Part shown: positions 1,706 to 44,989 of the stretch, one piece after another
Layout: every line of letters begins with the position of its first letter
Position numbering within the stretch: position 1 is the stretch's first letter
IMG/VR virus record: IMGVR_UViG_3300024999_000139
Span: 1 to 53,943 of that record
Direction: 5' to 3' (one strand)
Source of the DNA: a virus
Taxonomy: Duplodnaviria; Caudoviricetes
Length of the DNA stretch: 53,943 nucleotides
Made by a program: the position numbers and the translations under genes
The notes under the pieces: model-generated
The model's input: the letters and a program-made list of their open reading frames with translations, nothing else
Told to the model about the DNA's origin: nothing
The model's database searches: none

Positions 1706-2104
1706 TTAGACTATACTAGAAGGAACAAGGTTTTGGGAACATGGACACATTCTCGTTCTTACCATTCTACAAGGCGTTAATGATAATTCTTTCTCATCTA
1801 CAACCAAATTATTGCCTTTGAATACCGTATGTTCATCAATTATTTTCTCTAAATTAAGACGTTCTATATGAAAGGAAAAATCCAATCCGGCAACTACTTT
1901 CTTTTCGTTTAAGAAAACCAATGCTTTCTCAGCATGTTCTTTGGTCGTATATCCCCTTGCTTCTTGGGAGAATGTTTTAAATGCTATGTATTGCCATTTT
2001 TTATTGTTTAATTTGCCTATACTTGATTTATTGATAAAGTTACCATCTTGATCTTTAATAACCCAAATTAATTGTTCGTTTTCTTCTTTTTTAAAACATC
2101 CCAT
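1706..2104 (-). CDS. hypothetical protein
   Basis: 132-aa ORF with AAGGAG RBS. Confidence 0.7.
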   Translation of the reverse strand: MGCFKKEENEQLIWVIKDQDGNFINKSSIGKLNNKKWQYIAFKTFSQEARGYTTKEHAEKALVFLNEKKVVAGLDFSFHIERLNLEKIIDEHTVFKGNNLVVDEKELSLTPCRMVRTRMCPCSQNLVPSSIV

Positions 2105-2184
2105 ACATTCACTTCTCCTTTAATTTTATTTTATGGAAAATTCTACAAATAGGGCTTTAATTCATTTAATACCTCCTTGTTAAT

Positions 2185-2213
2185 ATTATATCGTACATAT
2201 GTACGAGTTTCAA
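2185..2213 (-). promoter_or_regulatory. sigma-A promoter with a palindromic operator in its spacer
   Basis: TTGAAA-17 nt-TATAAT; spacer holds the perfect 16-bp palindrome TCGTACATATGTACGA (2191-2206). Confidence 0.75.
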
Positions 2214-2262
2214 TGAACAAAATTCCAAAAATTTGTGGATTATGTTCTATTATGTTCGGTGT

Positions 2263-2269
2263 TTCGACA
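2263..2269 (-). promoter_or_regulatory. Spo0A (0A) box
   Basis: exact TGTCGAA on minus strand; near-matches at 2311-2317 and 2320-2326. Confidence 0.4.
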
Positions 2270-2279
2270 TTGTTGTGTT

Positions 2280-2360
2280 TTATTTATTTATTAAAATAGG
2301 AATATTGTCATTTGACATAGGTCGAATGTCATAGCACTTTAGGACTATCTTTATGAGCAT
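2280..2360 (-). CDS. small ORF (26 aa) coupled to membrane protein 2
   Basis: AGGAGGTG RBS overlapping the upstream TAG; MLIKIVLKCYDIRPMSNDNIPILINK. Confidence 0.35.
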   Translation of the reverse strand: MLIKIVLKCYDIRPMSNDNIPILINK

Positions 2361-2372
2361 TGTTATCACCTC

Positions 2373-3206
2373 CTACGCATAATAATCTTCTTGACTGGCA
2401 ATATCATCCACATTATCACTATTAATAATATTTTCATAAACCTGCATTTTTTGTTTTTCTTTTGATAAAAAATAATTAATTACAATTAATAACCAAGTAA
2501 TCAAAATTACAGGAGTAGATGTAATTATTACAATAATGATAAATTGGTCAATGAATTGAAAACTAAACAAAATACTTTCACTTTCTATCAGTTTAGCAAT
2601 ATAAGTAATTATTGAAACTACAGACATTATTATCGCAGCAAAACTTCCCATAAAGAATTTACTCTTGATAATAACATCAAATAAATTTACTTTCACTTTG
2701 CCATTTTTCTTCATTATGATAAAAGTTATGATACACGTATAAAGAATTCTTGCAGGTAAACCCAATAGAAAATTATAGAAAAAAACATTATTAAAAAATT
2801 CTTGAGGCTTATGTAATAGTGAAAATATTATTGGACAATATGCATATTCCAATATTCCAGTGATTACAAAACCTGCTAGTGTGTAGATTGCTGTTTTTAG
2901 TATCAAGGGGATACTTATATTGTCGCTATTTTTAATTACTATGTAAATCATTGAAATAATCATTAGTGCCATTGCCGACAATATTACATCTATTTGAGGA
3001 ACAGCAATCACAAATCGTAAAACGCTAACTAATATAGATGTGGGCAAAGTTGCAATTAAAATCCATTTTAAATTTTTCTTCCACATATAGATATCAAAAA
3101 GATTATCTAGTTCTTTTAGGAATGTTAGAGTTATGATTGCGATAAATAATTCTTCAGGTATTCCTACAAATAGCATATTTAATATAGCATTGACAATGGT
3201 CTGCAT
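2373..3206 (-). CDS. polytopic membrane protein, putative peptide receptor with no kinase domain (paralogue of 5136..5975)
   Basis: about 7 hydrophobic segments, GIPEE motif, LPARIL, short acidic C-tail; no HisKA or HATPase motifs. Confidence 0.7.
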   Translation of the reverse strand: MQTIVNAILNMLFVGIPEELFIAIITLTFLKELDNLFDIYMWKKNLKWILIATLPTSILVSVLRFVIAVPQIDVILSAMALMIISMIYIVIKNSDNISIPLILKTAIYTLAGFVITGILEYAYCPIIFSLLHKPQEFFNNVFFYNFLLGLPARILYTCIITFIIMKKNGKVKVNLFDVIIKSKFFMGSFAAIIMSVVSIITYIAKLIESESILFSFQFIDQFIIIVIITSTPVILITWLLIVINYFLSKEKQKMQVYENIINSDNVDDIASQEDYYA

Positions 3207-3369
3207 AGGGATTCCTTCTTTCGTTTTTGTTTGATTTGTGGTGGTTGGGACTTATTATGTATTACTGTTGCTGTAAATATATCATAAATCATGGAAAATT
3301 TAATTGAATAAAGTATGACAAATATGGGAGTGGATAGGGGATGCGTGGACTATGAAAGAAAATTATATA

Positions 3370-4008
3370 TTATCTATGTATACTTTGTTCATCTAAGAGA
3401 GAATACAATCCGTAACCAACATTGCTTATCGAGAAAAGTTCTAGTAATAATCCAAAGCAACTTGCAATAATAATTATATTTAGATTAAAGAGTAAGAAAA
3501 TGGTCATTATCATTGCCCATGATATTAAGTAGTATAACGACCATTTTCTGAACTTTGATTTTTCAGAATCTTCTGTAATTGGTTTATTAGGTGTGTCGCG
3601 AGGGACATATTTTAAAATTATATATAGTCCCATCGCTAAACAAAATATAAATAATATTTGCATATCCATGTATGACCAATATTGCAGCGTGTGTTTAACT
3701 ATTAATGCAGATACTATGAATTGAAGGGTAGAAAATGTGATACATTTTGTATAGTCACTAAAATGAAAACCACCTCCAATTATTCTAAAACTACTAAAGG
3801 TTAATGTGATAATCATAGAGGTCATTAAGACTCCAAAGATAGACGCTAACGACACCATTATAAGTCCTTTTATTAATGCTCCTACGATTACCATGAAACC
3901 ATAAGTATAAACCTCAATTTGATCTTCTACAGTTGGATATTTATCATTTGGTACTTTTGTAGCTAATTTTTTAGCAAGATAATTTGATATAAATTCGATA
4001 AAATTCAT
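3370..4008 (-). CDS. agrB: AgrB-family peptide-processing membrane protease/cyclase
   Basis: IEVYTYG, RIIGGGFH...C catalytic His/Cys motif, PRDTPNKP. Confidence 0.92.
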   Translation of the reverse strand: MNFIEFISNYLAKKLATKVPNDKYPTVEDQIEVYTYGFMVIVGALIKGLIMVSLASIFGVLMTSMIITLTFSSFRIIGGGFHFSDYTKCITFSTLQFIVSALIVKHTLQYWSYMDMQILFIFCLAMGLYIILKYVPRDTPNKPITEDSEKSKFRKWSLYYLISWAMIMTIFLLFNLNIIIIASCFGLLLELFSISNVGYGLYSLLDEQSIHR

Positions 4009-4032
4009 TAAATTATTTAATCTTCCTTTCTT

Positions 4033-4860
4033 TTATCGTGCATAGGCTACCTGCTGACCTGCACTAGAATAATTATTTTGATATTGATTTTGCCTGATTG
4101 ATTTAACTTTATTTAGGTTTTTTAATGCTTCAATTGCTTCTTCTTCATTTACATGTATTTCTAAAACACCCTCCGATTTCATAAGAGCGATTTCAACTTT
4201 TAACATTAGGTTTGGTGGGCATTCCGATACCTTTTGAAACACTCCATTCTTTCCTATTAATCTCCTTTTTGATATTGTGTTTGGTAATTCACAACATATA
4301 ATTGAATCTTGGGGAATTCCGCACTCTTTACTGCTTGCAAAAACGTGAGTAGGCATCTTTGCTTTGGATCTACTGGTCATGGCGATTACGATGGAATTGC
4401 TAGAACACGCATTACCCTTGTTATTTTGAATCACAAGCACCATTCTTGGGCCTCCCACCTCACTATCTATCCCTTTGTCTCCAAAATCTGCGAAACAAAA
4501 ATCACCCCTTCTGACTCGAATATTTTTTATTTGCTCCAAATCATTATTTTCATACAATGAATACCCACATGCTATTTTCAGATCCTGCAATGAAACTCTA
4601 CCTTCTGAATTATTTGCGAAAACATTAAGAGTTTGAACGTTTGGGTAAGCATTTATTTTTTCACGAATAATTAATTCTATGTACCCTCCTTCAATTTTGC
4701 AGTCTGCTCCAAAATTATTAATAGTCCTATGAGTGCCTTTAGCATTCATAATTAAATTGGCTAATTTCTTAAAATCCTTTTTTGTATTTTCCTCAGAGTT
4801 AGTAGTGTTGGTTGATTTAGCAAATAATTTGTTGAACATAATAATGCACATCCTTTTCAT
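4033..4860 (-). CDS. XRE-like HTH fused to PemK/MazF endoribonuclease domain (start may be ATG at 4839)
   Basis: N-terminal helical domain ending LKIACGY; C-terminal RRGD...SEVGGPRMVLVIQN...IAMTS...PTHV. Confidence 0.8.
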   Translation of the reverse strand: MKRMCIIMFNKLFAKSTNTTNSEENTKKDFKKLANLIMNAKGTHRTINNFGADCKIEGGYIELIIREKINAYPNVQTLNVFANNSEGRVSLQDLKIACGYSLYENNDLEQIKNIRVRRGDFCFADFGDKGIDSEVGGPRMVLVIQNNKGNACSSNSIVIAMTSRSKAKMPTHVFASSKECGIPQDSIICCELPNTISKRRLIGKNGVFQKVSECPPNLMLKVEIALMKSEGVLEIHVNEEEAIEALKNLNKVKSIRQNQYQNNYSSAGQQVAYAR

Positions 4861-4901
4861 ATTTAATAAGATATAAATAATTTTCTTTATCTGATAGTAT
4901 T

Positions 4902-4931
4902 ATTATATCCTACTATGTATGAATATGTCAA
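4902..4931 (-). promoter_or_regulatory. sigma-A promoter for HTH-MazF and agrB
   Basis: TTGACA-18 nt-TATAAT. Confidence 0.7.
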
Positions 4932-4969
4932 CACAATTATTGTAATTGTTTATTAATTTATATTATGGT

Positions 4970-4999
4970 TATAGGGAAGAACCGAAGTCCTTCCCTATA
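4970..4999 (-). terminator. stable hairpin after agrD
   Basis: TATAGGGAAGGAC-TTCG-GTTCTTCCCTATA with a cUUCGg tetraloop; no clear U-tract. Confidence 0.6.
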
Positions 5000-5011
5000 T
5001 GTAGGAAATGA

Positions 5012-5128
5012 TTATTTCATGCAACTAGGAGTTTTTGGTTGATAAGAAATAAAATAAGAAGCAAACACGGTGGAGAACATGGAAGTAGCCATACATACAA
5101 CACTTGCAATAATAGCATATTTTTTCAT
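5012..5128 (-). CDS. agrD: AgrD cyclic-lactone autoinducer propeptide (not in ORF track)
   Basis: AGGAGGTG RBS; MKKYAIIASVVCMATSMFSTVFASYFISYQPKTPSCMK has a hydrophobic leader, SYFIS core and YQPKTP tail typical of clostridial AgrD. Confidence 0.9.
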   Translation of the reverse strand: MKKYAIIASVVCMATSMFSTVFASYFISYQPKTPSCMK

Positions 5129-5135
5129 TTTGTTT

Positions 5136-5975
5136 TCACCTCCTTTCATCTAAATCTTCTACATCAAGCATTACATCATCTTGCATAACAAGATTTTTGT
5201 AAGTCTGTTGTATTTGTCTTTCTTTAACCAACAAATAATTGATTAATAGTAACATCCAAAATAATATAATAGCAGGAATTACTAATGCACCCATTACGAT
5301 AAAACTTTGTTCAATCATTGATACTTTGTTTTCTAAAATTCTATCAGACCCAATAAGCTTTAAAACATAAATCGCAATAACATTAGACATTATCGTAAAT
5401 GAAATAAAAGAATACAATAAAAATCTATTTTTAGAAATAGTTTCAAATATTTTAATTTCAACGATATTGTTGTGTTGTATAATTAAATATATTACTATTG
5501 AAAATCCTAATATTCTGGACGGAATACTTAATATGAAGTTCCATAAAATATTGGTATTTAAGAAATCAAGAGGTTGATTCATTAAATATAGCATTATTGG
5601 ATAAGTACATCCTTCAAGAAAACCGAACATTATCAGACTAAAAATTATGCATACAAACAGTTTACAATAATCTCTTTTCTTGAATTCAAAACTATTTTTT
5701 CTTATTATATATGTAAATGTGATAATAAATATTATCAATGAACTTAATGAACATGTGACTTTTGGCAATTGTAATATATATTTTGTTGTATTTATATTTA
5801 CAGACATTGACAAAACAGGTATTATAATCCATTTTAAATTTTGCTTCCACATTCTTATGTCTAACATATCAAATCTTTTCAATAATATTAGCGTCATTCC
5901 CGTTAAAAACAATTCTTCTGGTATGCTCACCAAGATCGTGCTCAATAAAGCATTTATTACACCTTGCATATGCAT
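5136..5975 (-). CDS. polytopic membrane protein, putative peptide receptor with no kinase domain
   Basis: SIPEE motif, IPSRIL, about 7 hydrophobic segments, acidic tail; its stop overlaps the agrD RBS. Confidence 0.7.
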   Translation of the reverse strand: MHMQGVINALLSTILVSIPEELFLTGMTLILLKRFDMLDIRMWKQNLKWIIIPVLSMSVNINTTKYILQLPKVTCSLSSLIIFIITFTYIIRKNSFEFKKRDYCKLFVCIIFSLIMFGFLEGCTYPIMLYLMNQPLDFLNTNILWNFILSIPSRILGFSIVIYLIIQHNNIVEIKIFETISKNRFLLYSFISFTIMSNVIAIYVLKLIGSDRILENKVSMIEQSFIVMGALVIPAIILFWMLLLINYLLVKERQIQQTYKNLVMQDDVMLDVEDLDERR

Positions 5976-6019
5976 TGCCTCTTTCTTATCTATTTCTTAA
6001 CCTGTAACGAGTATATCAT

Positions 6020-6048
6020 AAGACAAGGTGCAATGCAAACATTATTTT
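6020..6048 (-). promoter_or_regulatory. sigma-A promoter for receptor-agrD
   Basis: TTGCAT-17 nt-TATACT with TG extension. Confidence 0.6.
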
Positions 6049-6050
6049 AT

Positions 6051-6671
6051 TTATTGATTTAACATTTTATTCATATGTATTTTACTAATCTCTTTAACTG
6101 AATAATAAACAATTATAAAAACAAATAATCTACATAGCACATCCCCAGGCGACCAAATACTTGTGCCGATATCAAATATGTCAGATAAAAATATTAGATT
6201 TGTTGTATGATCTCCAAGAACATGAAAATCTCCATATTTAGAAGCATTAATAATCATATTATATTGTGTATAACCAGTTGAATAAGATACTGATGGAAAA
6301 ATTGGCATAAGATTATTGTTAAAACTCATTACAATCTTATTCAATGTAAAGCCACACAACAAACTACAACAGGCGATAATATACTCCTTATACTTCTCGT
6401 ACCTAAACAAAACATCAAGTCCTAGAATCATATATGATCCTAATATAGCATTCTTTATTATGTGTTGATATTGAAGAAAATAGTAATTCTGATTCATTAT
6501 TGTGTATTGTAGATAGACGTAAAATATTGACATAAATATTATTGGATAGATACTCCATCTTTTTAATATTGGTTTTATGAGGTATGATTCTTTATGTATT
6601 TGGAGTTTTCCTAGTTTTATGTATAGTTGAATTTTAGAGAATATGAGTGATACTATCAGTGTCTCAACCAA
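6051..6671 (-). CDS. DUF5317-family membrane protein
   Basis: NxxxMP, H...TxLxFLxD, SPGD motifs. Confidence 0.75.
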   Translation of the reverse strand: MVETLIVSLIFSKIQLYIKLGKLQIHKESYLIKPILKRWSIYPIIFMSIFYVYLQYTIMNQNYYFLQYQHIIKNAILGSYMILGLDVLFRYEKYKEYIIACCSLLCGFTLNKIVMSFNNNLMPIFPSVSYSTGYTQYNMIINASKYGDFHVLGDHTTNLIFLSDIFDIGTSIWSPGDVLCRLFVFIIVYYSVKEISKIHMNKMLNQ

Positions 6672-8475
6672 TAGTTAACACCTCTTCTCTTGTCTCTATT
6701 GTATTTATGTATTCATTATAGAACATCCATCTTAAAGGTTCTTCTGTAATTGGATGTTTCCCCATAGACTGTCGTTTATTGTTACAACATTTAGATATAT
6801 TTTGCCTTCTAATATTATATTTACTTGAAGCTTCTGTTTGTGAATCAAATACCTCTCCTGTTGTTAAACATGTTACTTTTTTATTATAATTATGATTTTT
6901 TATATATTCATCATACCATCCTATAGTTTGATTTTTAATTAAATATTCATCGTAAAATATCCATTTAAGTAGTTCTTTTGTGACAGGATGTTTACCACAA
7001 TATTTTTGTTTATTGTAACAACATTGGGATATACCACTATCTTGTATACCATACTTTCTTTTTGCATCTTTTATAGAATTAAATATCTCACCAGTGGTCA
7101 AACACATTACTTTTATACTTAGTTTATTTTTTAATTTTTCTTTGCTTTTTTGTAATTCTTTATTAGGATCGTAATCGCACCAATTTAATTTAGCACCTTG
7201 TTTTAGATATTTTCTAATAGTTGCACTATGTAATTTAAATTTCTTTGATACTTTTGATATGTTGTCAGTTCCATCATCCCACATATTACAAACTAGTTTA
7301 ATAATATTACTACATGCATATTCATGTGCTTTCAACCAATCAATATCTTCCTCTTTAAAGTTTAATAATTTAGGTAATTTACTTTTCATAATACTATTCT
7401 TTATCCATTCTAATTCAGATTTTCTACAATCTATAATTATGTAATTCTTAATATTATTACTCCTAGCCAGCCATTCTTTATCAAAATCATTGTTTTGGAT
7501 ATCTTCTAATGAACCCCAGTTAATACCAACCTCTTCATAATGTTGCAATCCTCCAACTTCGCAAATTCCGTTAATCTTTTTTATATAAAAATCATATCTA
7601 TATTTTCTACACCATTTAAAAGCAGACTTATTTAGTTGCGTTATAAAATCTTTGTTTAATAACTGTTCTAACACATTAAACGTAAATTTTTCTGGATATG
7701 GTATATTGTCTGAACATTTAGGACAAGAAAATCCGTTTATTCTTAATTGACTTATCTCTCTTTTCTTTTCATATCCACAATCTGGACATCGCATAGGCAA
7801 TTTAATTTTTGAAGATCCAGCAGGATATTTTAATGCATCTTCTGGATTAACTAGATATTTAACTAAATGAGGATGAGTTGTAAAAATTGAATTGCATTTA
7901 ATACAATCAAGATTCACTCCACTACAAACATTTGTAAAACTCGATATATTTTTTAACTCTGATCCATGTTCTGGATGCTTCAAACACTTAAACCAATATC
8001 CTTTACCATTCAATCCCCTAGAACTATGACTAACATCTTTTGGAGATAATTTATTTCCATTTTTATCGATATTTAATTCATCGTCCCATCTGTCTAATAT
8101 CCAATCTGCAAATTCTTTAGGTAGATTGTCATAACACCATTGATAAAAAGTAATACTATCTTTTAATTTTGTCTTTCTTGTTTTTTCTCCTCCGAACAAT
8201 TGCATGGTACATTTGTGACAATAATATTTCCCATCATCTTTAACACTTTTTTTATAATTTCTCCATATTATTCCTTCTAATAACTCACCACACCCATCAC
8301 ATTCAACATCAACTTTAACACGAGAATTATTTAATAGGTCATCGATTTTTACTTCGAATTTATCACCCCAGTTAGTAAAAATATATCCTCTTTCTTCATA
8401 CCATTTTTTAGTTGTCCCGTTCCATTCTGTAATACCAATTTTACTTATTAACACTTGACAAAACTCCTTTGCCAA
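6664..8475 (-). CDS. free-standing homing-type endonuclease: Zn ribbons, PD-(D/E)XK/Vsr-like nuclease and NUMOD1-like repeats (likely start GTG at 8454)
   Basis: multiple CxxC, RYDFY...EVGGLQHY...NDFDK, two VxCLTTGExFxS...IS.CC repeats. Confidence 0.75.
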   Translation of the reverse strand: MAKEFCQVLISKIGITEWNGTTKKWYEERGYIFTNWGDKFEVKIDDLLNNSRVKVDVECDGCGELLEGIIWRNYKKSVKDDGKYYCHKCTMQLFGGEKTRKTKLKDSITFYQWCYDNLPKEFADWILDRWDDELNIDKNGNKLSPKDVSHSSRGLNGKGYWFKCLKHPEHGSELKNISSFTNVCSGVNLDCIKCNSIFTTHPHLVKYLVNPEDALKYPAGSSKIKLPMRCPDCGYEKKREISQLRINGFSCPKCSDNIPYPEKFTFNVLEQLLNKDFITQLNKSAFKWCRKYRYDFYIKKINGICEVGGLQHYEEVGINWGSLEDIQNNDFDKEWLARSNNIKNYIIIDCRKSELEWIKNSIMKSKLPKLLNFKEEDIDWLKAHEYACSNIIKLVCNMWDDGTDNISKVSKKFKLHSATIRKYLKQGAKLNWCDYDPNKELQKSKEKLKNKLSIKVMCLTTGEIFNSIKDAKRKYGIQDSGISQCCYNKQKYCGKHPVTKELLKWIFYDEYLIKNQTIGWYDEYIKNHNYNKKVTCLTTGEVFDSQTEASSKYNIRRQNISKCCNNKRQSMGKHPITEEPLRWMFYNEYINTIETREEVLTIG

Positions 8476-8521
8476 GTAAAAGATTTATTATTAATAATCA
8501 ATTAAATTATATCTCTCCTTC

Positions 8522-8572
8522 TTAAATTGCATAAGCAATATTATATTTATTTTTTACAATTCCAATCATCAT
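8522..8572 (-). pseudogene. 16-codon ORF resembling a MazF C-terminal remnant
   Basis: MMIGIVKNKYNIAYAI; shares TTGCATAAGCAA with the mazF 3' end near 9250. Confidence 0.4.
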
Positions 8573-8581
8573 ACCAATCAC

Positions 8582-18201: not shown

Positions 18202-20394
18202 TTACTCTTTCTCGCAATAAAACATTTCTCTAAGTGTAATAATATCTTTCCTTAATACCTCTCTAGTTTGCTGTCTTAACCATCCATAAAACTCATTTGC
18301 TAAAGGTGTAGTCAAGGAACTAGTATACTTAGTATATCCATTCTTAGAAACATCTTCTTTAACACTTCTCATATGTTTCCAGAAACCATAATACTGCAAT
18401 TTAACCTTTGTCATAAATCCAACCGTATCTTCTAAAACAAATCCCTCAATATACTGATTCTTATACTTGTAATCATCTGCGGTTACTTCTTCATACCATT
18501 GATAAAATTCTCTCCAATTATCTAAAACTTTTGCCTTTACTTTCAATGGAAGATTATATTTGTTAGAGAATAATTGCAACTCTTCATAAGATTTTACCTT
18601 ATGTTCATTAATATTATTTTCTACAATTTCCAATAACACTAAATGAGGAAAACTATATTTAATCATATGAGGATCATTCGTAGGATCAATAACTTCAAAT
18701 ACTAAAGTAGATTTCTGTTCCTTGAGATATTCTTTAATTTCAAATTGTTGTTTTTCGTCAAGAATATTATTAAATATATCCTTAAAATATCCTGCAAATT
18801 CACTATTAGGATTTGATTTTGAGCTAATTAATAATGTATCTCTAGAAGAATCATAACCTACTAACCCTAAGAATCCATTATATTTTACCCAAGCTGTCAC
18901 AGGAAATTGGAATACATTTTTAAGATTATCTAGTTTAGTGTTCTCTCGCTCATTGATATTGAAAAATTTTAGAAAACTTTTGGCAATTATCTCTCCGTTT
19001 TCAACATTAAAGAATAATCCTCTGGCCTTCATAGTTTGATCGTCCCAAATCTTCTTATAAAAAGCATCCTTTGTAAAATTAAATGAAGATATATGACCAA
19101 ACTTAGATTCTCTAATGTAGCGATTTTCACGCAATTTTTGTATTAATTCCATGTTAGAAACTACAATTTCTTCAGACTGAACAGGTTTAATTTCTTCCTC
19201 AATTTCCTTAAAAACATTATTTTTTACTTCAATAGTGTTAAATCCTTCATTATCGAGTGTAACAACCCTGAGATTTCCTCCAAACTCTATTTTTCCTTCC
19301 AAACAAAAACATCTTTTATTAATTTGGATTGGTGAATCTGCAACGTTACGATGCCCGTGTATCTGAAAGTGATTATCTGATGTGGAGTTTAAAAATTGAG
19401 CATTGACCACTTCCATATCCTTATATTCTCCAACGCCTTTAATCAACTGTTCTGTGGCTAAGAATTCAAATCTTTCTGGTATTGTGCTGATACCACCATG
19501 CGTAACAACTACAATTTTCTCATTGTATGTATAATAAGCTAATTGTCTTAATTTCCTATAGAATATTCTCAATTTCTTTTTATCTACTTGATATTTATTA
19601 AGTTCTCTTTTTGTTACTTGTTCAAATTCTTTGCTTTTACTAGGAATGTCATTAGCAAAGTCAAACAGCCATTTTTCATGATTTCCTTGTAAAAATATTA
19701 CATTGGGTTTATCCATAATAGTAAATAAGAAATTAAGTAATTCTGCATTTTCAATTCCTCTGTCAACATAATCTCCAACAAAGATATATAATTCATCTTC
19801 TTTTAATTCACTCTGTAAATATTCTTGCAAAACAGTATTACATCCATGTAAATCTCCAATATGATGAATCTTTTTATACTTAGAAAAATCTAAAGGAGAA
19901 TATGTAATTGTGTCCCAAAATTCCTCTGGTTTAATTGCTTTAACTCCACTAGGAATTTTTTGAGATTCAAATCTTGCATACATATTGTCAATCACAAAAT
20001 CAGGTACAACTTTATAATCAGGTTTTCTATTCCTATTTCTCTCTTTGCAAACTTCAATAGGAATATCCGTCATATCAACACAAATTATTCTATATCTATA
20101 TGTTTCTGCCATACTTTTGTATCTATTTAACTCAACAGTTTTAGAATTAGTTGCATCAACTACAACAAATTCTCCACGAATCATTCTTTGCTCTAAGATA
20201 TCAAATAGTAGTTCCCATACTTTTTTATCATTCTTCTGACTAACACCATATTTTCCATCTGAAGTCATAATAGGAGATTGTAAAAGTAGTCTAATATTAT
20301 CCGCACTTAAAGCATATTGTTCAAGATTATTTTCTTTGATGAAGGTTGATTTTCCACTCGCAGGTGATCCTCGAAACAATGTAAGTATTCTCAA
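18202..20394 (-). CDS. polynucleotide kinase-phosphatase-RNA ligase (RNA repair)
   Basis: P-loop GSPASGKST, metallophosphatase GDLHG/GDYVDRG/GNHE, ligase KYNG...EGFV. Confidence 0.88.
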   Translation of the reverse strand: MRILTLFRGSPASGKSTFIKENNLEQYALSADNIRLLLQSPIMTSDGKYGVSQKNDKKVWELLFDILEQRMIRGEFVVVDATNSKTVELNRYKSMAETYRYRIICVDMTDIPIEVCKERNRNRKPDYKVVPDFVIDNMYARFESQKIPSGVKAIKPEEFWDTITYSPLDFSKYKKIHHIGDLHGCNTVLQEYLQSELKEDELYIFVGDYVDRGIENAELLNFLFTIMDKPNVIFLQGNHEKWLFDFANDIPSKSKEFEQVTKRELNKYQVDKKKLRIFYRKLRQLAYYTYNEKIVVVTHGGISTIPERFEFLATEQLIKGVGEYKDMEVVNAQFLNSTSDNHFQIHGHRNVADSPIQINKRCFCLEGKIEFGGNLRVVTLDNEGFNTIEVKNNVFKEIEEEIKPVQSEEIVVSNMELIQKLRENRYIRESKFGHISSFNFTKDAFYKKIWDDQTMKARGLFFNVENGEIIAKSFLKFFNINERENTKLDNLKNVFQFPVTAWVKYNGFLGLVGYDSSRDTLLISSKSNPNSEFAGYFKDIFNNILDEKQQFEIKEYLKEQKSTLVFEVIDPTNDPHMIKYSFPHLVLLEIVENNINEHKVKSYEELQLFSNKYNLPLKVKAKVLDNWREFYQWYEEVTADDYKYKNQYIEGFVLEDTVGFMTKVKLQYYGFWKHMRSVKEDVSKNGYTKYTSSLTTPLANEFYGWLRQQTREVLRKDIITLREMFYCEKE

Positions 20395-36571: not shown

Positions 36572-37093
36572 CTAGCATTCCATATGTTTAACTAAAGTTC
36601 TAGCAACAATTTCAACTAGTTTTTGCTCTGGCGTTTCCATATTTTCTTGTTTTGATATTAACCCTACTATACCAATCACATCACCTTGATAGATTATTGG
36701 AGTTACAACTTGAGATTGATAATTAAACTCCTCTTTTACAATTCCTGTATAACCAACCTTTGTACGTCTTTCTTCCATTACTAATTGAGCTAAATTCCAA
36801 ATAGGTTTATTCAAAAATTCCTTCTTTGATATTCCTGCTACTGCTATTACATAATCTCTATCACATATTAGAGCAATGTATCCAGTAGTTTCAAATAGAG
36901 AATCTACAAAATTCTGAGCAAAATTACTTAATTCACCTAAAGGAGAATATTTTTTAAATAGGACTCCACCATCTTGAGCAAATATTTCCATAGGATCGCC
37001 TTCTCTAAGTCTTAAAGTTCTACGAATCTCTTTAGGAATTACTATTCTCCCTAAATCATCAATTCTTCTAATAATACCTGTTGATTTTGCCAT
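36572..37093 (-). CDS. spoVT: SpoVT-like regulator (AbrB-like N-terminus plus GAF)
   Basis: TGIIRRIDDLGRIVIPKEIRRTLRLREGDPMEIF...KKYSP...CDRD...PII.QGDVIG. Confidence 0.9.
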   Translation of the reverse strand: MAKSTGIIRRIDDLGRIVIPKEIRRTLRLREGDPMEIFAQDGGVLFKKYSPLGELSNFAQNFVDSLFETTGYIALICDRDYVIAVAGISKKEFLNKPIWNLAQLVMEERRTKVGYTGIVKEEFNYQSQVVTPIIYQGDVIGIVGLISKQENMETPEQKLVEIVARTLVKHMEC

Positions 37094-43559: not shown

Positions 43560-44989
43560 TATACAATCTCTCCTTTATTTAAATTAATATTATACATTTA
43601 ATCAAGACTCCCATACAAACGGTACATAATCATCTTCCTTTAATACAGGCCAAGCAGTATCACCTTCTCTAACTTGACTTTGTAAAAAATCACAAATTAA
43701 TTTTCCATAATAACTATTTAATCCTTCTGCTATGACATATTCACTATAGTCATCTAGATTGTAATTGCTTGTTGCTACAATAAATATGTGAATAGTGTCT
43801 ACCATGCTCATCTTCCTCAGATTCACCATCTTGCTCTACATATTCCCATTCTTCATTATCAACGATTAATTTTGATTCATTGTCTATTGCTTGCATTTGT
43901 TCGTTGGTTAATTCAATTTTCATTATGTAATCTCTCCTTCTGTTTTTATTCAATTTCCCATTTTCCGTTAATATCTTCTAATTCTAATCTATGAATAAAA
44001 TAATTTACATCATGAAAATTAGCAAATCTTTCTCCTTTAATTCTCTTACCACTATTTATTGCTGTCATAAAATCTACAGTCTCTCTAATTAATTCCCAGT
44101 CCTCATTAACATTTGGAATACAAAGACTACAACCATTTTTAATATCTTCGACTAGTATCCCATTTGATATTTTGAAAATCTTATTGTAATTATGTCCTTC
44201 AGTTAGAGATTTGAATTTAGCATCTAAATAAGTACGAGCGTATGTATATAAGTCACCTGTTTTCATTATATTTTACATCTCCTTTATTATTATTTTATTG
44301 AATCATATAAGCCAATTTCTTTGATAAAATTCCATACCTATTAACAATATCACAATCTAAATGAAAATCATCTAAACTTGTAATTTCTACCACAGCACTA
44401 CTCGGAATTGTATTACCATGTAAACTTCCAAGAACTGAATTTCTAGAAACTGATTTAGCATCTTTAATTTCTTGAATATATTCTTCCCAAGAATCAACCT
44501 CTATTACTCTGGATTGATGATCTTTGATTGTATTTTCTTCATCTATAGATAGATTTGTTTCGATAACTTTGATCATATTTTATTTCACCTCCTCTCAATC
44601 ATATAATCCTTTAACATATTCTTTTATTTGCAATCCAGTGAACCCTAATTTGTGTAGTTTATCTAGCATTATTTCAGCATCGTGTAAATCAAATATTATA
44701 GCATCTTCATGAAGTGGTGTTAGAGATGGCATACCATTATCATAATCTCCTTCATAGAAGAAATTGAGAAAATTGTATATTACATATTGTTTAGTCGTTG
44801 GTTTTACTTCCTTTCTATTATACCAATTTTGAATATTATAAGTTTTCCCACATGATTCGCAAAAATTAATCCTACCACTCATTCCAACTAAAACAGCATA
44901 TGTATCAAGTTCATCATCAATTTCTTCACCGCAATTAAAACATCTATCAAGCACTTGTTGCTCACCTCCTTTACATACATCCCTTAAAA

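Follow-up and report, generated by a model that had tools for sequence, protein, structure and literature searches.

A helix-turn-helix–MazF fusion as candidate output component of a kinase-free agr-like cassette in a large low-GC phage

Agr-type peptide quorum sensing works via a histidine kinase and a LytTR regulator. Within a 53,943-nucleotide stretch of phage DNA (IMG/VR record IMGVR_UViG_3300024999_000139; hereafter, the window), we describe an agr-like cassette that carries neither of these and has, between its agrD-like gene and agrB, a gene for a protein in which an N-terminal XRE-type helix-turn-helix (HTH) domain is fused to a MazF/PemK endoribonuclease domain. The synteny of this fusion with the agr genes is strict and ancient. 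We tentatively read the fusion, with somewhat less than even confidence, as the component that provides regulation and output in the cytoplasm for an agr-like peptide cassette free of kinases, derived from a fused XRE antitoxin and MazF. That the protein binds DNA, cuts RNA with a given specificity, is gated, and ties its activity to the signal are predictions.

Conserved linkage of the fusion to agr genes

On the coding strand, the gene order is a second MazF (MazF2), a variable open reading frame (ORF), a homing-endonuclease-like gene, DUF5317, the transmembrane (TM) protein TM279, the AgrD-like precursor, the fusion, AgrB, and a second TM protein, TM277 (Table 1). The sequence-only reading had put the fusion where a response regulator would be found in an agr operon. 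This part of it needs correction: with an order of TM protein, agrD-like gene, fusion, agrB and TM protein, the fusion does not occupy the place that AgrA has in a canonical agrBDCA operon.

Loci were collected with either the fusion or AgrB as seed. In the full-length fusion-seeded loci (six viral and three metagenomic), a TM279-like gene adjoins the fusion in 9/9, and across all fusion-seeded loci the TM gene is present in 11/11 and AgrB in 10/11, the eleventh contig stopping before the AgrB position. Viral loci seeded with AgrB carry both the fusion and the TM gene in 14/14 cases and DUF5317 in 13/14, a pattern specific to one AgrB clade, with three loci resembling the same phage as locus L001. 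The same cassette recurs in two loci whose fusion is ~33% identical to that of the window; the second TM protein is only sometimes part of it. As a control, 231 other loci were fetched via the plain MazF domain, and none had a match to AgrB, the TM protein or DUF5317. Linkage to agr genes elsewhere had been named beforehand as one of the points on which the sequence-only reading could fail, and it was found in every fusion- and AgrB-seeded locus that reached the relevant positions. Another such point, whether the N-terminal domain is an HTH, likewise came out in favour of that reading (see below).

Domains were counted in five records, namely the window and four relatives, two of which are judged 100% complete. 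LytTR, Response_reg and HATPase_c_5 were found in 0/5. With no kinase, receiver or LytTR domain in these records, an unconventional output is needed, for which the fusion is the obvious candidate. Its initial designation as best candidate effector gains partial support from this absence; from sequence, an effector role is plausible. Given its strict and ancient placement between agrD and agrB, the promoter it shares with agrB and the lack of a kinase or regulator, no other gene of the kinase-free cassette is, in our guarded view, as good a candidate for its intracellular arm.

The same records speak to the claim that no antitoxin gene is present. Each of the five holds exactly two PemK genes. 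In the window, no MazE/AbrB or ribbon-helix-helix (RHH) domain adjoins either MazF gene; RHH (PF01402) is found in 0/5 records, and AbrB/MazE (PF04014) in neither of the two complete relatives. The claim therefore stands for the surroundings of both MazF genes and for the complete relatives, and is qualified by a 173-aa protein with an N-terminal SpoVT-AbrB (AbrB/MazE-type) domain (36572-37093, minus strand; E 6.8e-12), which lies 32 kb from the fusion; of the five records, the window alone has this domain.

As for the agr genes themselves, AgrB residues R, GG, H (H82) and C (C89) are invariant across nine phage homologues, and we take this His and Cys to be the catalytic pair. The small ORF preceding the fusion matches the AgrD model TIGR04223 with an E of 0.0067 and 16.6 bits, below the cut-off of 19. 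All 12 AgrD-like precursors carry the motif S-x4-[YHN]-Q-P and have Ser, with no Cys, as the presumed ring residue, in a register that we assumed by analogy with clostridial AgrD. The Ser suggests a lactone ring, not a thiolactone.

The membrane proteins TM279 and TM277 are candidate receptors. Among 35 relatives of TM279 (177-310 aa), none has a kinase domain, and tblastn with TM279 against GenBank phages returned no match. The cytoplasmic tail of TM279-type proteins is acidic and strikingly conserved (KEKQIQQTYENLVMQDDVMLDVED). A language-model neighbour annotated as 'sensory transduction protein kinase' (score 0.91) is taken as a lead only. Complex prediction with two copies of the fusion and the TM279 tail (residues 243-279) gave a score of 0.00, which is no evidence either way. 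One predicted metagenomic protein of 148 aa (P0082), in which the HTH domain of a fusion homologue is joined directly to the last TM segment and acidic tail of a TM279-type protein, may have arisen through chimeric assembly or through natural recombination.

Table 1 Coordinates of the fusion, its domains, the cassette genes and associated sites in the window
Feature	Position	Strand	Detail
HTH-MazF fusion, longest ORF	4033..4860	-	275 aa, stop codon included
Divergent XRE/Cro-C1-type HTH domain, residues ~22-100	4561..4797	-	fold and profile
Conserved acidic/aromatic linker	4513..4560	-	alignments; pLDDT (predicted local distance difference test) 56-76; putative role
MazF/PemK endoribonuclease domain with catalytic Arg (GGPR) and Thr (AMTS)	4177..4512	-	Pfam, PDB matches, Foldseek, alignment
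C-terminal extension: helix 239-261, N/Q-rich stretch, terminal QVA[YF]A	4036..4176	-	alignment, model
AgrB peptidase	3370..4008	-	PF04647 E 4e-36; 24 nt downstream of fusion
AgrD-like precursor, probable start 5128 (38 aa)	5012..5149	-	Ser five residues before [YHN]QP
TM279, kinase-less multi-pass (7-TM) membrane protein, receptor candidate	5136..5975	-	conserved acidic cytoplasmic tail
TM277, membrane protein paralogous to TM279	2373..3206	-	36% identity to TM279
DUF5317 membrane protein, first gene of conserved cassette	6051..6671	-	family match, synteny
Free-standing second MazF (MazF2), 126 aa, ending KVAYAN	9244..9624	-	family match; upstream of cassette
Sigma-70-type promoter-like site TTGACA-18-TATAAT, 12/12	4902..4931	-	-35 kept in 9/10 aligned loci
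Perfect palindrome ACAATTA-N3-TAATTGT, candidate operator	4933..4949		abuts -35; sequence
GC-rich hairpin with UUCG-type loop, after agrD-like gene	4970..4999	-	compensatory changes in 7/11 pairs (11 loci)
UACAUA hexamer, 5' foot of hairpin	4998..5003	-	8 nt past agrD-like stop

Domain architecture of the fusion

The true start of the fusion is likely Met8 (4839), giving a protein of 268 aa; we place it there on the basis of a conserved ribosome binding site (RBS) ~10 nt upstream, the N-termini of relatives and an identical 268-aa Atlas record.

A PemK/MazF domain retaining both catalytic positions had been proposed from the sequence, and the follow-up bears this out. Pfam PF02452 (PemK_toxin) matches residues 117-228 (E 1.3e-17; 64.4 bits against a cut-off of 23.1), the PHROG match is PHROG 1936 ('MazF-like growth inhibitor'), and the closest PDB sequence matches are B. 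anthracis MoxT, B. cereus MazF and B. subtilis EndoA (E ~1e-16). The AlphaFold model has the MazF barrel fold (Foldseek against 4hke: E 2e-11, template-modelling score TM(target) 0.91, root mean square deviation (rmsd) 1.7); the Foldseek matches listed are MazF/PemK-family endoribonucleases, and identity to Bacillota MazF structures is 40-42%. In the alignments to the PDB matches, the Arg of GGPR corresponds to Arg25 and the Thr of AMTS to Thr48 of the Bacillus MazFs, which mutagenesis identified as the catalytic pair of B. cereus and B. subtilis MazF (PMC7354611). In a family alignment of 30 rows, 29 have the Arg, and 29 have T (25 rows) or S (4 rows) at the Thr position; the sole row without the catalytic residues is an outlier that carries tandem MazF domains. 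Seven more distant fusion clusters have an invariant Arg and keep the Thr/Ser position, and the GN and E/K/R motifs of Bacillota MazF are also present in the fusion. As judged by its residues, the MazF part is apparently catalytically competent.

The N-terminal domain was harder to place by family: Pfam returned no family for residues 1-115 even at an E of 10, and a profile of the domain had no match among PDB sequences. The full-length AF2 model has a pLDDT of 81-92 across the HTH region, and a model of the isolated domain, built on a 10-sequence alignment, is a five-helix bundle (pLDDT 84). VIA-align, a fold comparison independent of Foldseek and covering 48,161 chains, put XRE/Cro-C1 HTHs in its top rows, led by CapH-NTD (Z 9.1, rmsd 1.9 over 65 residues) and followed by an XRE regulator (Z 8.9), C.AhdI (8.6), SinR (8.4) and the P22 c2 and 434 repressors (8.1); this Z range of 9.1-8.0 is common for helical models. 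The Foldseek rows were likewise mostly XRE-type regulators, with weak E values from 0.03. Searched against 1.84 billion representatives, the domain profile retrieved 576 proteins at E ≤ 1e-3, and among the 146 of these that were scanned (ranks 5-150) the families were HTH_3 (67), HTH_26 (17), HTH_19 (12), HTH_31 (11) and Peptidase_S24 (10). From the fold matches together with the HTH_3 profile matches, the N-terminal domain is a divergent member of the XRE class, so that the DNA-binding-like domain noticed in the sequence-only reading can now be named; DNA binding is predicted.

Between the two domains lies a linker with the consensus CGYSNYxNNDxEQIKNI, which reads YSE-D-EED-SW in the seven distant fusion clusters obtained from the profile search. 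By its composition it is a candidate built-in neutralising segment.

In both MazF paralogues of the window (4036-4080; 9244-9265) and in their relatives from other phages, a low-complexity stretch is followed by a hydrophobic C-terminal tail, V-[AV]-[YF]-A(-N/R). This tail could be a degradation or docking tag, and may resemble ssrA-type tails.

Searches for the complete protein elsewhere were negative within their scope. None of 49 matches in GenBank phages covered at least 80% of the fusion, the best 80 matches of a GTDB genome scan were to the MazF domain only, with no full-length fusion, and a viral scan with P0084 as the sole query gave no match. One locus of that scan (L160) turned out to be an ordinary MazE-MazF pair, and we regard the weak matches to TusA (E 0.034) and to a nitroreductase (E 0.57) as accidental. 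In the literature searched, supplementary files aside, we found no description of a natural MazF-agr cassette or of an XRE-MazF fusion; in the available portion of PMC3879964, the word 'fused' is absent and 'fusion' occurs once, in an unrelated sense.

Regulatory sites, a candidate RNA target and the phage background

The promoter-like site upstream of the fusion matches the sigma-70-type consensus fully, and most loci have an inverted repeat with one arm, TAAGATAT, over the -10 and the other, ATATCTTA, in the leader. The 24-nt gap from the stop of the fusion to the start of agrB holds an RBS and is free of promoter-like and terminator-like sites. From this short gap with its RBS and from the promoter-like site upstream, it is reasonable to take the fusion and agrB as co-transcribed, apart from a TM279-agrD unit. 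The hairpin after the agrD-like gene is a candidate terminator or 3' stabiliser.

Two further palindromic sites had been picked out by the sequence-only reading, and both exist. Around 9623-9665, a perfect 14-nt inverted repeat reaches across a -10-like TATAAT and the start codon (ATG) of the free-standing MazF gene, with the RBS in its loop; it resembles the -10/leader repeat of the fusion promoter. The other, a perfect 16-bp palindrome (TCGTACATATGTACGA) at 2191-2206, belongs to an 11/12 promoter-like site that precedes ORF 1706-2104, and occupies precisely the stretch from its -35 to its -10. No motif is common to 2191-2206, 4933-4949 and 9623-9665.

At the foot of the hairpin, TACATA occurs 0-13 nt past the agrD-like stop in 10/12 loci from at least four sequence-divergent groups, and is kept even in loci with a different hairpin and different flanking sequence. 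According to bioRxiv 10.64898/2026.08.06.743204, the MazF enzymes of B. subtilis, L. monocytogenes and S. aureus cut strictly at U^ACAUA. Across the window, UACAUA is 2.6 times denser between genes than within them (14 intergenic copies versus 6.4 expected), and in four cases (near 43929, 31371, 26578 and 18103) it falls in the spacer from a Shine-Dalgarno sequence to a start codon. Self-avoidance of the MazF site was considered and rejected, as UACAU occurs 102 times on the sense strand versus 88 expected, and UACAUA also exceeds its expectation (counts below). There is no depletion of UACAU(A) in the cassette genes.

With an estimated completeness of 39%, the viral record that makes up the window is a fragment of a large phage, with a G+C of ~28% and nearly all listed ORFs of at least 100 aa on the minus strand. 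Phage-type functions encoded in it include a Pnkp/RNA-ligase fusion, a sigma factor, radical-SAM proteins and endonuclease proteins; no tRNA or tmRNA was found in it. Viral contigs with close relatives of the locus measure 94-230 kb, and the two relatives judged complete 227 kb and 167 kb, the latter with terminal repeats. Relatives encode tyrosine and large serine recombinases, which makes a temperate or plasmid-like lifestyle, in which such switches matter, possible for these phages. Megablast of positions 2000-10000 against GenBank phages returned no match, and the sequencing runs listed as containing positions 2300-6100 are DNA runs from groundwater and sediment metagenomes.

Two further genes of the window deserve mention. 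A 603-aa homing-endonuclease-like gene (6664-8475, minus strand; NUMOD/treble-clef; phrog_4538) separates MazF2 from DUF5317, and at this spot such a gene is present, absent or fragmented among relatives. Farther away, a 730-aa polynucleotide kinase/phosphatase-RNA ligase fusion (18202-20394, minus strand; phrog_8238, E 4e-221) is an RNA-repair enzyme; MazF-type cleavage leaves 2',3'-cyclic phosphate and 5'-OH ends, the substrates of such enzymes.

Competing readings and what the cassette may mean

The fusion likely originated from an XRE-type antitoxin, comprising a DNA-binding domain and an acidic neutralising tail, that became joined to its MazF toxin, making it a single-chain toxin-antitoxin. 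If it now serves as the output component of the cassette, as we tentatively propose, MazF-mediated dimers would set two HTH domains on the fusion-agrB promoter, and autoregulation of the fusion would set the level of AgrB and with it the signal output. Once released, the RNase would cut selected RNAs; one candidate target is the UACAUA between the agrD-like ORF and the 3' hairpin, where cutting would destabilise the receptor-agrD transcript. The signal could gate the protein through the membrane proteins that carry no kinase, by way of their conserved acidic tails, or by peptide binding in the MazF groove, and turnover via the C-terminal QVA[YF]A tail might add further gating. A more elaborate version, which we consider quite unlikely, would turn the AgrC-like membrane proteins, whether their kinase was lost or never there, into membrane-anchored antitoxins whose conserved acidic tails keep the DNA-binding MazF RNase at the membrane; a cyclic lactone peptide made by the phage would trigger its release or capture, turning a population signal among infected cells into site-specific RNA cleavage and promoter control, for example in timing lysis, lysogeny or host shut-off.

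Several observations weigh against a signalling output. Synteny by itself does not establish a functional link, and TM277 and TM279 match no sensor family, with nothing found for them in Pfam, NCBIfam or PHROGs. The candidate operator at 4933-4949 is not kept in diverged loci, and its matches in the window are at chance level (2 versus 2.4 expected). UACAUA is over-represented on the sense strand (52 copies versus 29 +/- 5 in simulations and 37.8 under a Markov model; 27 on the antisense strand), and with the hexamer so common the conserved copy could serve another purpose. Among the positions conserved in UACA(U)-type MazFs (PMC8634880) are Pro15, Gly18 and Pro26, which in Bacillus MazF make contact with UACAU; in the fusion, Pro15 and Gly18 are replaced by Asp and Pro26 by Met, and given these changes its cut specificity may differ from that of Bacillus MazF. 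When AF2 modelled the N-domain by itself, only 1/5 models reached good confidence. Finally, no RNA run is listed for positions 2300-6100.

A first rival reading makes the fusion a single-chain toxin-antitoxin or host-shutoff RNase that is complete in itself and only accompanies agr, its HTH autoregulating its own promoter and its function being addiction, superinfection exclusion or host takeover without any peptide signal. We judge this unlikely, if the most serious competitor. The HTH-linker-toxin order is what loss of the stop codon in an antitoxin-toxin operon would produce, the acidic/aromatic linker resembles the neutralising tails of antitoxins, and PHROG 1936 is classed as moron/host takeover; moreover, a second antitoxin-less MazF lies nearby in every record, and the recombinases in relatives make possible a temperate or plasmid-like lifestyle that would benefit from addiction. 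What speaks against mere co-travel is that the agrD-agrB placement is kept down to ~33% identity of the fusion, under a promoter common to the fusion and agrB, whereas hitch-hiking modules usually change place: the fusion family was found outside the cassette in 0/18 contigs.

A second rival makes the protein a transcription factor only, with the MazF barrel as a dimerisation or peptide-binding domain that has no physiological RNase role. Cytoplasmic peptide receptors are built in this way, with an N-terminal XRE HTH ahead of the domain that binds the ligand, and ComR, PrgX and ElrR are among the HTH fold matches; antitoxin peptides naturally bind the MazF groove, and quorum peptides are reported to act on E. 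coli MazF (PMC3668371). Yet the catalytic Arg and Thr/Ser are kept in 29/30 rows and 7/7 distant clusters, which is unexpected if catalysis is dispensable and disfavours the early idea that the MazF fold serves only to dimerise; we consider a purely transcriptional role distinctly unlikely. The fusion could also act as a modulator of host MazEF, titrating or being checked by host MazE, or forming mixed dimers with host MazF, such that host stress would control the phage protein. The identity of its MazF domain to chromosomal Bacillota MazF and the lack of a phage antitoxin among our findings fit this idea, and cross-neutralisation of non-cognate MazEF pairs figures in the title of PMC10893535, but no specific sequence sign points to it, and it leaves the HTH and the agr linkage unexplained. 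We regard it as very unlikely.

Known systems offer partial parallels. The cassette resembles agr (AgrB-AgrD-AgrC-AgrA) in its AgrB with invariant His and Cys and its adjacent small AgrD-like precursor, and differs in having kinase-less membrane proteins and the HTH-MazF fusion instead of the AgrC kinase and LytTR regulator. The agr3 locus of phage phiCDHM1, as described in PMC3901668, encodes AgrB, AgrD and the kinase AgrC without AgrA; it is likewise phage-borne and AgrA-free, but possesses the AgrC that the cassette here does not have. With Bacillota MazF/EndoA of type II MazEF systems, the fusion shares the fold, 40-42% domain identity and the equivalents of Arg25 and Thr48; it differs by its N-terminal XRE HTH, a C-terminal extension of ~47 aa, the lack of a separate MazE gene, three changed UACAU-type positions and its phage origin inside a peptide-signalling cassette. 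CapRel(SJ46) and EzeT are fused single-polypeptide toxin-antitoxins. Like them, the fusion combines in a single polypeptide a toxin with a segment that may regulate or neutralise it, and comes with no separate antitoxin gene; it differs in toxin class (MazF RNase), in domain order and in belonging to the phage rather than the host-defence side, with neutralisation in cis being putative.

This phage clade keeps the peptide-making half of agr, with kinase-less membrane proteins and an HTH-MazF protein in place of the transduction half. Circuits leading from a peptide to an RNase are so far known only as synthetic constructs. If the link is functional, the cassette would be a natural circuit from a diffusible peptide to an RNase, and would give communication between phages, or between phage and host, a new type of output. 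For the question of how MazF toxins are kept in check when they lack an antitoxin or form a single chain with one, the fusion is a concrete case to study, with the conserved UACAUA beside the agrD-like gene as a specific candidate target.

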